A stretch of 63,443 nt of DNA, the filler included, from Reticulomyxa filosa (taxonomy: Eukaryota > Protista > Foraminifera): NCBI GenBank assembly GCA_000512085.1. It is 14 parts of 14 records of this genome, joined end to end, with 100 filler letters (N's around TTAATTAATTAA, not from the genome) between each part and the next. Parts side by side here need not be neighbours in the genome. Positions count along the whole stretch, not along the records: positions 4,165 to 8,978 come from ASPP01005898.1; positions 9,079 to 15,455 come from ASPP01046082.1; positions 15,556 to 17,811 come from ASPP01008833.1; positions 17,912 to 41,992 come from ASPP01018891.1; positions 42,093 to 44,494 come from ASPP01009801.1; positions 44,595 to 46,621 come from ASPP01010729.1; positions 46,722 to 48,865 come from ASPP01016780.1; 7 more parts are not named here. One strand, given 5' to 3'. The notes under the pieces are model-generated. The model had not been told where the DNA came from, did not search any database, and saw only the letters and a list, made by a program, of their open reading frames with translations. The translations under genes were made by a program, and so were the position numbers. Position 1 is the stretch's first letter; each line of letters begins with the position of its first letter. Shown here one piece after another: positions 5,545 through 47,546 of the stretch.

Positions 5545-6759
5545 ATGGGTAATCAAAACAAAACTTTCTTTCAAAGTTTGAAGGAGTTGCCAATTCCACT
5601 TTTTCAATCTCAATGTGTGGTACACAAACACGAACTACTCATTTGTGAAAGAGCTTGTTATTCTTATCATACAATTAAAAATGAATACAAGTTTATCTGT
5701 GAGTATCCAAGTGATGTCAAATTATCGGGACACTGTGTAGTGAAACTGGTAGACAAGGACAGCAACAAACACAGAAATCAAATTACTTTGTTGTCTTTTG
5801 GTGGAAGTGAATATACAAAAAGACATACATTGATAATGAAATATGTAAGTGTTTGGAGTAATATGTCAAGCAATTCAAACAATCACAATCAATGGGTTCC
5901 TTTCACAGACAATCACAATCATCCAATAATCATTGGAAGAAATAATAGTGATTATCGAGGAGGTCGTGCAGTATTGGTGGAAGCAACAATCATTTGTTAT
6001 TTATCACTTATAGAGATAATAATATTAATGTGTTTGATTTAAATACATTTCAATTTATTAAACATGATACTTTATCAACTCTTTATGAAGTAGCTTTTCA
6101 TTGCTTTGTATCAAATTCAAAAAAAGTACAAAGACGAGAAATAATGAAAACAAATGAAAGAAAAAAATAAACAACATCATCAATTGCTGTTGTTCAAACA
6201 GAATGCAGGGTTATCAATTGAATATGATGAAGATAACAACACTTTTCAATTTCATAAACTACCTGTTTGTGATGATATTGCACCACTTTATTATTATGCA
6301 TATGTGTGTATTAATGATGCCATATTCTTTTTTGGTGGATATAGTAATTTCACTTATTCAAAGTCAGTGCACAAGTATTCAATTCGAGAAAACAAATGGA
6401 TGACATTTCAAAACACATTACCCAATCCATTGTGTCATTGTGCTGCAATATGGAGCGAAGAAGACAATCATATACATATTATTGGAGGACAAGATAATAA
6501 AGGGAAAATAATATCAACTCACATGAAGACCAATGTACGTGTGTGGGATCCTTCACAATTGGTATATGTATATATTTATTTTTGATGAAACACAAATAAA
6601 TTGTATTGCGTAAAACTGATTGACAAATAATACTTAATAAAAAATGAACAGTCAAAAAATGATACAAAATTCATTATCAAATATTTGATTCGAATTTCAG
6701 AAATAAAACTAGGATGGATCGATGATTTTGACAAAATTATTATAAAATACAGTAGATGA
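5545..6759 (+). pseudogene. Kelch-repeat beta-propeller gene (foraminiferan expanded family), frameshifted; last exon carries the GWIDDFDK cassette
   Basis: Motifs LKELPIPLFQSQCV, LLSFGG, AIFFFGGY...SVHKYSIRENKW, IHIIGG. Frame changes near 5973 and 6160. GT-AG intron 6562-6651, then exon SKNDTKFIIKYLIRISEIKLGWIDDFDKIIIKYSR*. Confidence 0.8.
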
Positions 6760-8591
6760 AATAATATTTAACATATATTGAGATAATTAAGATAAATCAT
6801 GTCATCTTTATATATAATTTTGATTTGGTTTTTTTATTTGTGTAAGTTTCATAATCATGAAATTTACCAACTTTTTAAATTAAATTGAAAGATTGGATTA
6901 AAAATATAATTTTTATACGCAGAAAGAAGTTGCGAATTATCTTGTTGTTATTCCCTATTACGGTAGGAACGAAATTTTTCATTATGATACAGTGATTGTG
7001 ATTGTTACGCAAATGTTGCACTTGAGCAACAAAGTACGTTGAAAACATGGAAAAAGATTATTATTCTTATCGAAAAAACAACTCAAAACAAGAAATGCAA
7101 CATATTGGTGGTAATTGAAGAAATAATGTTATTTCATTATTCATGGCAGTGTCGTTGTTCGATGACTATCAATTGATCAAAACAAAAGGAAAAAGGAAAA
7201 TAGAATTTAATTTCATTGATATGAAATCATTGTAATAATATAAACAAATGCATTTCTCCAAATAGAACACCTAAAAAACATTTTACATTTTTTAAAAAGG
7301 TATCATGCCATTATGTGACACAATCAATATTCAACTTTTTCGTAAAAAAATCGTAGTCTTTGTTTCTAAGTCTTATATGATAAATATTTTCAATGAAATT
7401 AAATGATATTTTCCTTTTTTTTTTTTATTTAGATCAGCTGATAGTCATTGAGCACTGTTATAAATAATGAAAAAACAATTGGAAAAAAAAAGTATAGATA
7501 TTCGAAAGAGTACCAATCTATAAACTATCCAAAATTGCATCCAAAGAGACTACAGACAAACGAAATGATAAAATATAATTGGAGAAAGAAACGCATGAAT
7601 TTAAACAAAATAAATCAATGGATATAAATATTGTTTAATTTAATGACAGAACATTGCTTGAGAAAAATAATCTCACATATACAACATATTTATGTGGCCT
7701 TTTATATTTTTTTGAAGAATTTTTTGTTGTTATGTCCAAATTCAAAACACAAACAAAATATCACTTGAGAGGACAATAAAAATACCATTACAAAGTTAAA
7801 CTCTTTTTTTGCAACAACAAGACGAGCTATTAAATCTTTGTTACGAAAAAACCATTTTTTAAGAAATGAAAATCATAAAACAAACGTCCACACAGAATAG
7901 TTGTATTCGTTTTGTTGTGTTATGTGAAACAAATGTGATTAATAGAACAAAATCCCACATTATTTCAAAAAACATTTGATGTCATTAAGTTTTTTAAAGA
8001 AAAAAAGCTCTTCATCATAATAAAGAAAAGAATCATGTTGACCTCGAATGTGAGATTATTACTTAATGTAATCAAGTTATATTTTATTACATGTTGATTT
8101 AATCATTCCTTTTTTTCTTCCAAGTTTTTCAACCAAAACAGAAGGACAAACAAATTCGATTCCATTTTAGAAAATTGTTTGCAAGTGATAACTCTGTTTT
8201 CTACTCCAATTTTACCCATTTGAAGAAATATCAAACACATTTAAAGTTTATAAAAGTTGTGCTAAATTATACTTTTTATTCAACATCGAAATTCCTTTTT
8301 CTTTTCAAACATTCTTTAAAACTACAAAAAAAATTGAACAACTATTTTCAAAGATTTGTTGAAAGCCTTTTGAAAAAAAACTTGTGATGTATGTGCATAC
8401 TCAGCTTTGGGCAAATTCTTTTTAAAAAATTTCTTGTCTTCACTGAAAGAAAAATCATATGTATTGTTAAAATCCATTTTTCATGTTGCCAAAAATATTT
8501 TTAAAAACCCCTTTCATTGCCCTTGAGAAAAAAAAAAGCTCAATATCTTCCATTTTACATCATCAAAAACGATATTAAGAAAAAAAACAAA

Positions 8592-8978
8592 ATGACAACT
8601 CTTAGCAATGAGAAGCAAACTTCAACACAATTAGCATTGGTAAGCTTTATCACAAGCTTTTAGAAAGTTTGTTTCCTTTTTTTGTTTTATTTATTGTATA
8701 TAATTTGATTAAAACAGTCTGAAGAAGAAAGAATTCAAGTAATTGTACATCATTGGATTCGAATATTGAAAATCAAATTAGGATGGATTAATGAATTTGA
8801 TAGACTTGTTGTCAATTATGTTAGTTCATTTATTCTTTCTTTTTTAAAAATAACAATCAAAACATTCCAATATTACTTAACATAGTTGACTGCTGTCTTC
8901 ATGTTTGATACATTTTGTTCATCATCTAAATTACTCAATACATTCACTGGACATACAAGCACTGTGTGGAGTATTGAT
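8592..8978 (+). CDS. WD40-repeat protein, 5' part (3 exons, truncated by contig end)
   Basis: Exon 8592-8639; exon 8718-8819 (SEEERIQVIVHHWIRILKIKLGWINEFDRLVVNY); exon from 8886 (MFDTFCSSSKLLNTFTGHTSTVWSID). Paralogous to 46722-47546. Confidence 0.8.
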
Positions 8979-9079
8979 NNNNNNNNNNNNNNNNNNNNNN
9001 NNNNNNNNNNNNNNNNNNNNNNTTAATTAATTAANNNNNNNNNNNNNNNNNNNNNNNNNNNNNNNNNNNNNNNNNNNNG

Positions 9080-9975
9080 TTGATCGATGAAATCTCGCTG
9101 GCCGAAGACGCCGTGTTGGAGCCATCCAGAACTTTGTTCTTGGCCAAAAAGGGTGGCAATCAGACCGAGGAGATTGTCGCCAATCCATTGTTTCGAATCT
9201 TGAGCACAATGAAAATCGGAGGGAACTTTGGAAAGAAGGAGCTGTCGCCCGCGTTGCGAAATAGATTTACCGAAATATGGGTACCCTCGCTCGTGGAAAG
9301 AGATGAAGATTTGCTGGCCATTATCAAAGAGCGAGCAAGGAATCAAAGCGAATTGATCCACTTTGCGCCGTTGATCATCGATTTTATGAAGTGGATAAAA
9401 TCGCAAAATGAAATCGCCGTTTCGTTGCGAAATATTGTTAGCTGGGTTGACTTTATGATGCACTTTGGCACAAAGCAGTCCCAATCGCAAGCAAATCATA
9501 AGCCTTGGATTCAAGCGTACATTGACGGCGCGCATTTGATCTTTTTGGACGGACTCAGCATTGGCACCACCATTGTCGCATACACGTTCCTCTCATTTGC
9601 GGAAACACGCCATCGATTTTCTGCGTCAGCAATTGAAGGACCAGTCGAACCTGTTTGATATCCACATTGATATCAACGATGAAGAATTGAAAGTAATCGA
9701 AACCAAATCCGAAGTTTGTATGGGCGTCTTTAAAAAAGCACAATTGCATGCAGGAACAGGGACAGAGAATGTAAAGCCTAGTCGATCATTGTCCTATGCT
9801 TAAATGTACCCACAGTCAAACGGAATTTGACGAAGATATTAAGTGCACTGTCTTTACCAAAGGCAATATTGCTCGAGGGCAGTCCGGGCGTGGGCAAAAC
9901 GTCATTGATAGCGGTGTTGGGACACATGATCGGATGTGACGTGGTGCGAGTCAATTTGTCGAAAAAACGGACCTG
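9080..9975 (+). pseudogene. MDN1: Midasin (MDN1/Rea1) AAA-ring fragment, pseudogene
   Basis: DEISLAEDAVLE, GGNFGKKELSPALRNRFTEIWV, FLDGL and ILLEGSPGVGKTSL...VVRVNLS are midasin AAA motifs. Several frameshifts, a deleted RLNSVLE segment and an abrupt end near 9975. Confidence 0.88.
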
Positions 9976-46202: not shown

Positions 46203-46562
46203 ATGAATACGCAATTTTTTCACAAGCTACGAAGAAAAGTGTCAGGCAATCAATCTTCAAACAAGCAAAACGAGGCTCATCACTTGAACGACCCCGGCGA
46301 CAGTACAACGAACACAGAGAAAGAAGAAGGACCAAACAGTCAATCGGTGCAACAAGTGGCAGTCGATGGGAACGTGATGAGAGAGTATTCTCCGCGATCC
46401 AAGCCCAGCCAGCCACCGCATACCCGTTCGGTGACAGCAGAGAACAGTCTGTACAAATACGAAGTGGACTCTGTAGCTGAATTGGATGAGGGGTTTCACG
46501 AATTTCATGAAGTGGAAAAGCATCATAGCATATTGGCAGACAATTCTGACCATTCTGTTGAG
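46203..46562 (+). CDS. Hypothetical protein, first exon (truncated)
   Basis: GC-richer hydrophilic ORF running into a poly-T intron and the contig end. Confidence 0.5.
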
Positions 46563-46586
46563 GAGAAAAAAAAAATTCCCCCCCCT

Positions 46587-46621
<35 letters not shown>

Positions 46622-46721
46622 NNNNNNNNNNNNNNNNNNNNNNNNNNNNNNNNNNNNNNNNNNNNTTAATTAATTAANNNNNNNNNNNNNNNNNNNNNNN
46701 NNNNNNNNNNNNNNNNNNNNN

Positions 46722-47546
46722 CATTTCCACCAATCACACCAATATTATTACTTTTATTACTGTTGTTGTTATTGCTTTGTAATGGAGAAATGTCAATACA
46801 CCGAACGGGATATCCATTAAAAACAGACAACAATTTGGATTTTTCAACATCCCATAAACAAACTGTTTTATCACTTGATCCAGAACACAAATATCGACCA
46901 CCATTAAATGGTGAAAATTCAATTCCATTAACACTATCGGTGTGTGTGAATATTTGTAATTGTTCATTATTTTTAAAATCCCAAAAACGAATGGTGTTGT
47001 CATATGACGAAGAACAAATGACATTTTGACGATGATTATAATAATGATATGGTGAAAATTTTACGCAATACACATAATTTGAATGTCCATTGAATGATTG
47101 AATTTGTTTGTTGTTATTAAAATCCCATACACGAACTGTATTATCAGATGATCCAGAACAAATGAATTGGCAATCATTAAATATTGAATAATCAATACTC
47201 CAAACCCGATGATCATGCCCAGTGAATTTTTTGATTAATTTGGATGGTGAACGAAACGTGTCAAACATAATGGCAACAGGTACCTATGTTAAATAAATAT
47301 TATATATTTTGATCTAAATTACTAAATGAAAACAAATGGACTAACATAATTGACAACGAGTTTGTCAAAATCTTTGGTCCATCCTAATTTAATATTTAGT
47401 ATTCGAATCCAATGATAAATAATTATTTGGGTCTCTTCTTCTTTTGACTTTCAGTCGTAAAGCAAAAAAAAAAGATAAACAAGCAATAAAGAATAAAAAT
47501 CTAAAGATAGCATGAACGTAACCTTTATTGATAAGCTTAAGCTCAT
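46722..47546 (-). CDS. WD40-repeat protein (foraminiferan family), 3' truncated
   Basis: Exons 47546-47523, 47447-47346 (SKEEETQIIIYHWIRILNIKLGWTKDFDKLVVNY) and 47283 to contig end. Motifs FTGH...CSGSSDNTVRVWD and GGRYLCSGSSDKTVCLWD. Confidence 0.88.

Follow-up and report, generated by a model that had tools for sequence, protein, structure and literature searches.

A short conserved box joined to kelch and WD40 propellers in the foraminifer Reticulomyxa filosa: a candidate docking module of a large receptor repertoire

Box copies and the genes that carry them

We analysed a stretch of 63,443 nucleotides (nt; filler included) from the freshwater foraminifer Reticulomyxa filosa (assembly GCA_000512085.1), here called the window, which consists of 14 contig segments joined by spacers. 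Three of these 14 segments carry a short coding element, hereafter the box, which adjoins propellers of the kelch and WD40 families and recurs, as described below, in hundreds of protein models with a conserved box and hypervariable propeller faces. A previous interpretation made from the sequence alone had placed four copies on three contigs, and all four were recovered at the positions and on the strands it gave: copy 1 (6652-6750, +) and copy 2 (8718-8819, +), both on segment 4165-8978, copy 3 (19938-20036, -) on segment 17912-41992 and copy 4 (47346-47447, -) on segment 46722-48865. Their lengths are 99, 102, 99 and 102 nt, and each copy is directly preceded by AG and starts with TCN, so that the phase-0 acceptor and the two lengths claimed earlier were confirmed in 4/4 copies. 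The motif as first written turned out to be an average of these sequences: W is replaced by L in copy 1, and copies 3 and 4 read F-G-W and W-T, respectively. Comparison of copy with copy by tblastn gave E values of 1e-8 to 1e-21, far below a background of E >= 0.06, which rules out a chance origin of the four copies. A profile built from them revealed no fifth copy in the window (next match E 0.76), and a less strict motif, of a kind that other foraminiferan proteins contain, matched only two of the known copies there.

The exon structure of the genes concerned is given below; all introns in the window were deduced from reading the DNA sequence alone.

5545..6561 (+): exon encoding the kelch propeller in a kelch-box gene (Pfam Kelch_6, E 2e-9 on 6148-6582; tblastn of relatives; reading frames)
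6562..6651 (+): putative phase-0 intron of 90 nt, GT..AG
6652..6759 (+): terminal exon with box copy 1, kelch type (box 6652-6750, stop 6757-6759)
8592..8639 (+): 16-codon leader exon of a box-WD40 type-A gene (same leader in relatives)
8718..8819 (+): symmetric exon, phase 0 on both sides, with box copy 2 of type A (flanked by introns 8640-8717 and 8820-8885)
8886..8978 (+): first part of the type-A WD40 exon, truncated by the contig end (weak Pfam WD40, E 0.017)
20127..20171 (-): 15-codon leader exon of a box-WD40 type-B gene (ends in Q-L, as the kelch exon does)
19938..20036 (-): symmetric exon with box copy 3, which groups with boxes of kelch type (flanked by introns 20126-20037 and 19937-19881)
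19002..19880 (-): exon, stop included, for a complete type-B WD40 propeller of seven repeats (Pfam WD40, 7 stretches, E 9e-78)
47523..47546 (-): probable leader exon of 8 codons in a type-A gene (similar leaders in relatives)
47346..47447 (-): symmetric exon with box copy 4 of type A (flanked by introns 47522-47448 and 47345-47284), identical to protein model P0002
46722..47283 (-): type-A WD40 exon, truncated by the contig end (Pfam WD40, E 7e-29)

The putative introns upstream of all four copies (6562-6651, 8640-8717, 20126-20037 and 47522-47448) and downstream of the three WD40-partnered copies (8820-8885, 19937-19881 and 47345-47284) would all lie in phase 0, and TAT followed by the donor GTTA marks the 3' end of each WD40-partnered copy. 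The claim that the box forms a symmetric exon holds for these three of the four copies, which have same-phase introns on both sides, and has to be withdrawn for the kelch copy, which is not symmetric because it lies in a terminal exon where two codons and a stop follow the box. Comparison of introns with one another gave one of 28 pairs with similarity at p<0.01, namely both type-A downstream introns; introns of different box classes showed no significant similarity among the 28 pairs, and common intron descent across classes is not supported. TTG (Leu) is the last codon of the preceding exon in three of the four copies (6559-6561, 20127-20132 and 8637-8639), and Q-L precedes the box in 10 of 23 kelch models. 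These ends hint at a common ancestry that may reach upstream of the box exon, for which intron similarity gave no confirmation.

The kelch-box gene contains two compensating frameshifts, one near 5975 and one in an A-run near 6160, and represents for this reason either a pseudogene or an assembly error. In the public model P0172, the donor lies 6 nt further on than the intron start at 6562 and is in phase 0 too. The type-A leader at 8592 shares the strand of the kelch-box gene and lies 1.8 kb 3' of it, and models P0004, P0110, P0133 and P0194 resemble merged neighbours of the kelch-box and box-WD40 families. The arrangement at 5545-8978, taken together with these merged-looking models, suggests that kelch-box and box-WD40 genes occur in tandem clusters.

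Size, conservation and history of the box family

A search of protein models with the box yielded 269 of 1564 candidates at E<=10, and all 120 listed were named Reticulomyxa filosa. The kelch end and box of model P0050 used as query retrieved 13 of 100 candidates, each of them a box-bearing R. filosa protein; because the box formed part of the query, these cannot be counted independently. A word-free profile search among 1.84 billion cluster representatives (50% identity) gave 192 clusters at E<=0.001, and 123 of the 150 cluster matches listed were new; ten of ten that were looked up belong to R. filosa. The resulting family set of 255 protein models is a lower bound, in which some models are partial or duplicates of one gene. 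Every member whose species was looked up is from R. filosa. No relatives of the box were detected by tblastn in 49 metagenome stretches, 68 viral and 21 prokaryote contigs, a search with narrow patterns that says little on distant forms. The lineage specificity proposed from the sequence is therefore upheld within what was searched.

The box also proved to be unnamed, as had been assumed: Pfam contains no family for the four window boxes, for 24/24 aligned boxes or for the box region of 16 further proteins, PDB sequences gave only chance local matches to the box and none for a kelch-box protein, and the ESM Atlas returned no usable match to the box region. We found no publication describing the box in the literature on Reticulomyxa kelch and WD40 families; the genome paper of the species may mention the expansions. 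Automatic names of box proteins include 'G-protein beta', 'kinase' and 'F-box and WD40'. The box and its lineage appear to be unnamed, the principle of a constant-box repertoire being already known.

For the comparison of boxes, 254 ungapped boxes were taken from the 255 models, gapped or cut boxes being skipped, and were assigned to classes by in-house profiles. W12, R14, G21, W22, I23, F26 and Y33 are conserved in 94-99% of the 254 boxes. Pairs of window copies showed proportions of synonymous differences (pS) of 0.46-0.62 and of nonsynonymous differences (pN) of 0.13-0.25, at about 16 synonymous sites per pair. The two propeller families named earlier, kelch and WD40, are both present; the WD40 partners have to be divided into two subfamilies, types A and B, of about 35% identity. 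In 60 random pairs of type A with type B, the box was 58% and the propeller 35% identical.

The variation of the propellers was examined as bits per column, with top-face positions mapped by in-house patterns. Positions R1-2, R1 and D-1 of the top face are described as partner-binding hotspots of WD40 proteins (PMC3419727). In 55 type-A proteins, the 16 columns of this face showed a mean of 3.14 bits, significantly more (p<1e-8) than the bottom-face loops (0.84 and 1.10 bits) and other polar columns (1.36 bits); in 25 type-B proteins the top face reached 3.15 bits vs 0.89-1.78 elsewhere. In the kelch propellers, variation clusters, as judged by eye, in those loops that follow the Gly-Gly motifs. 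A constant box and a hypervariable WD40 top face constitute an F-box-like receptor-repertoire pattern, as expanded nematode F-box genes are described to combine a constant box with a diversifying binding domain (PMC8120010). The expanded receptor repertoire suggested from the four copies is in this respect supported, the box family being expanded to hundreds of models.

Three architectures were found: kelch-box, kelch-box-WD40 and box-WD40. The 254 boxes comprise 150 of box-WD40 type A, 34 of box-WD40 type B, 23 of kelch-box and 35 with no classed partner, and the fused kelch-box-WD40 form, known from gene models only, is present in one chain in 11 models (12 classed, P0131 being misclassed). 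As the fused models P0133, P0232 and P0244 have a more divergent kelch part and a charged linker ahead of the box, the fused form cannot be put down to one recent accident. No third partner family recurred in the 123 further cluster representatives, in which in-house profiles (not a Pfam scan) detected only kelch, WD40 and fragments. In model P0205, the box is joined to a part that looks NACHT-like by eye, which may be a gene-model artefact.

The type of the box follows its partner. Leave-one-out profiles placed 212 of 219 boxes in their partner class (A vs non-A); kelch-like boxes were found in 22 of 23 kelch models, 32 of 34 type-B boxes were not kelch-like, and the fused proteins were divided 8 to 4. 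A box tree (38 boxes, 33 columns, rough support; three kelch rows that were broken and 92 of the 118 rows of type A left out) set type A apart from kelch, fused and type B at 92/94; according to this tree, copy 3 of the window resembles the kelch copy more closely than it does the other WD40 copies. A quick kelch tree with 26 rows showed fused proteins interspersed among unfused ones, with 6 changes, a number as low being obtained in 57-69 of 500 shuffles. In the type-B tree, three fused proteins formed one clade (99). Some of the unfused models may merely be cut short.

The bridging architecture, together with a box type that follows the partner, allows fusion and fission to explain why the box is N-terminal in some proteins and C-terminal in others. 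In the simplest account, a kelch-box-WD40 bridge would repeatedly have lost one propeller or recombined at the box, events that phase-0 introns would ease; the first acquisition of the box by type A could have occurred by one true shuffle. The sequence-only reading had instead proposed a symmetric exon cassette that hopped between unrelated propeller genes, a question of history which is separate from that of mechanism and to which we now give an unlikely yes. All seven flanking introns of the window are in phase 0, as hopping would have it, and Val stands right after the last Tyr in 93 of 150 type-A models, which is expected from read-through of a conserved GT donor, a spliced exon being able to start with Val too. 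Against hopping stand the match of box and partner class, the existence of bridging kelch-box-WD40 proteins, the terminal position of the kelch copy, the failure to establish a third partner family and the lack of significant similarity between introns of different classes. The hopping cassette is weakened by these results, and repeated hopping is not seen.

Proposed docking role and its alternatives

We tentatively propose that the box docks variable propeller receptors on one constant partner, most likely an adaptor of a cullin-RING ubiquitin ligase, a reading to which we assign slightly less than an even chance. Each kelch or WD40 propeller would bind a different target, the box would bind a shared cullin adaptor, with DDB1 (of CUL4) as first and Elongin BC as second choice, and the adaptor-bound target would be ubiquitinated. 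The repertoire might play an immune role.

Structure prediction for model P0038 with AlphaFold2 (81 sequences) gave a helix at 12-32, a loop and a helix at 42-51 just before a confident propeller, so that the box may, at low confidence, be regarded as a helix-loop-helix. Receptors of CUL4-type cullin-RING ligases (CRL4) are described to bind DDB1 via a helix-loop-helix of very low sequence similarity (PMC13061254). Two WDxR motifs occur in 46/55 type-A, 1/16 type-B and 0/5 kelch-WD40 proteins, paralogues being non-independent.

Docking on a cullin adaptor is inferred, and several observations speak against it. Many models are partial or mis-spliced, some duplicating one gene, and the absence of a Pfam family for the box, reported above, belongs here as well. 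In type B, conservation of the box did not significantly exceed that of the propeller (p 0.12), and the entropy among paralogues used here is no measure of dN/dS, the ratio of nonsynonymous to synonymous substitution rates. The predicted helix-loop-helix of P0038 reached predicted local distance difference test (pLDDT) values of 50-70 with two stretches below 50, and the box folded alone gave one helix. The comparison with Foldseek that had been suggested returned nothing for the box model and, for the full model, generic WD40 propellers with no DCAF among the matches listed. WDxR is common among WD40 proteins generally, and it is missing from 12/16 type-B and 5/5 kelch-WD40 proteins. Moreover, WDxR is reported to make no contact with DDB1 and not to be universal (PMC13061254).

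The sequence patterns of known boxes speak in the same direction. F-box identity was rejected: no Pfam match was obtained in 24/24 boxes, and the motif L-P-x-E with which an F-box starts was found in 0/254. By consensus pattern, a BC-box was found in 0/254, a Cul5-box in 0/254 and a Cul2-box in 1/254 boxes, the latter two being described as LP-hydrophobic-P and hydrophobic-Pxx-hydrophobic-xxx-hydrophobic, respectively (PMC13342108, PMC13061254). Membership in the F-box or SOCS/BC-box classes, considered in the sequence-only reading, thus fails on the defining residues. The H-box is characterised by Leu at 6 and Arg at 9, three residues apart (PMC3928422); this pair was unmatched in both registers tried by eye on the column profile, as position 9 is Ile in the register ending in L-G and position 6 is His/Tyr in that aligned on the invariant Arg; the H-box motif is known to be degenerate. 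No LisH match was obtained with Pfam in 24/24 boxes, nor a LisH sequence in PDB at E<=10, HMMER filters being known to drop weak matches. On the features tested, the box is a member of none of the F-box, SOCS, H-box and LisH classes; it may work like them. Prediction of a complex of the box with a stand-in DDB1 from a metagenome locus (L005) gave a score of 0.01 with alignments unused and controls not folded, which is no evidence either way.

The alternative that survives best, and which we regard as rather improbable, is that the box represents a dimerisation motif similar to LisH but divergent from it. A four-helix bundle would then be built by two boxes, and a kelch-box and a box-WD40 protein would pair to rebuild the fused form in trans. 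The box has the length of LisH and is predicted to contain two amphipathic helices, and we take the hydrophobic spacing of the first helix ending in W-I-R and the G-aromatic turn to be a likeness in residues. Natural fusions and adjacent kelch-box and box-WD40 genes (window 5545-8978; P0004, P0133) suggest that the halves cooperate. This idea is opposed by the negative Pfam and PDB results for LisH, by an alignment that has to insert four residues ahead of the glycine, after helix 1, and by the lack of CTLH or a coiled coil after the box; in addition, LisH is not known to have expanded into a set of hundreds of variable receptors.

It is unlikely that the box is a docking motif of an entirely new class, without relation to F-box, SOCS, H-box and LisH, within an immune-like repertoire of hundreds of kelch and WD40 receptors in a giant syncytial protist, paired combinatorially or placed on a lineage-specific ligase adaptor. 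We consider it a shade less probable still that the propellers are variable sensors and the box binds a non-ubiquitin partner, be it a signalling or NLR-like effector, a motor adaptor or, as an amphipathic hairpin, the membrane. The hypervariable top faces indicate a receptor rather than a ligase, all cullin-box patterns fail in the box, and P0205 joins the box to its NACHT-like part, with the reservation made above; however, no effector domain recurs with the box in the 123 further cluster representatives searched with in-house profiles. That the box is a mere structural linker or cap in a drifting, largely pseudogenised amplification is very unlikely, as one box occurs both after kelch and before WD40 propellers of two unrelated subfamilies, pS clearly exceeds pN and variation is concentrated at the binding face instead of being evenly spread, even though the window kelch copy is frameshifted, many models are fragments, 35/254 boxes have no classed partner and the family is known from gene models.

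Repertoires of ligase receptors with a constant box and a diversifying face are described in plants and nematodes, with a proposed link to immunity (PMC8120010). If docking on a cullin adaptor is true, this principle would extend to Rhizaria, by way of a foraminiferan box that stands before, between or after propellers, and a box covered by no Pfam family and missed by current E3 ubiquitin ligase annotation would be added. The single 33-residue bait makes the question of docking directly testable.

Neighbouring features and comparison with known systems

Other parts of the window contain an open-frame run at 24566-41465 (-), which ends in a HECT domain (Pfam E 6e-74, 24569-25975) and is probably one very large E3 ligase gene; it lies 4.4 kb from box copy 3, a proximity that is probably due to chance. 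A RING-like finger was detected at 23219-24043 (E 8e-5), and a frame at 57848-58411 has, by eye, a Cys/His pattern like a RING/TRAF-type zinc finger. From the frames, we take 50735-52805 (+) to be a coatomer beta-prime-like gene and 53221-54530 (-) to encode a tetratricopeptide repeat protein like a subunit of the anaphase-promoting complex/cyclosome, both assigned by eye. A GC-richer midasin AAA ATPase fragment (9079-10020; MDN1_4th, E 5e-5), apparently frameshifted, adjoins AT-rich DNA. Segment 60071-62295 contains intronless frames, including an IS5-family DDE transposase at 61045-61737; it looks bacterial and is probably a contaminant or symbiont contig.

Compared with known systems, the family resembles the F-box families of nematodes and plants (F-box/kelch, F-box/WD40) in lineage-specific expansion, a conserved box, a variable binding domain and broken copies. 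The F-box differs in its length of 42-48 residues (PMC8120010) vs 33 here, and the stop two codons past the box leaves no room for further helices in kelch-box genes.

Receptors with a BC-box, SOCS box or Cul2-box, such as KLHDC2 of CRL2 and SOCS2 and ASB9 of CRL5, have a short two-helix box, as is predicted here, and kelch with a C-terminal box is the layout of KLHDC proteins; the best Pfam kelch models for the window kelch include those of KLHDC2 type. The hydrophobic spacing of the Cul5 box equals that of the foraminiferan L20-G-W-I-x-x-F-x-x-L-V; however, the [CAS] position of the BC-box holds Ile in the foraminiferan box, and both prolines of the Cul5-box are absent.

LisH is described as a dimerisation motif of about 34 residues in LIS1 and muskelin (PMC12648486), standing N-terminal to WD40 in LIS1 (PMC8955593). 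The box is alike in length, in its two predicted helices and in its occurrence with WD40 and kelch, but it matches no LisH profile, has a longer first helix or loop, occurs C-terminally as well and is massively expanded.

The DCAFs (DDB2, CSA, DCAF1, DCAF12) carry a helix-loop-helix before WD40, the arrangement predicted at low confidence for P0038, and, though not universally, two WDxR motifs, found here in 46/55 long type-A proteins; unlike in DCAFs, the foraminiferan box is also C-terminal to kelch in proteins without WD40, and its paralogues number in the hundreds. Judging from the predicted structure, a DDB1-type helix-loop-helix would be the best anatomical fit for the box, with LisH-like dimerisation as the main rival.

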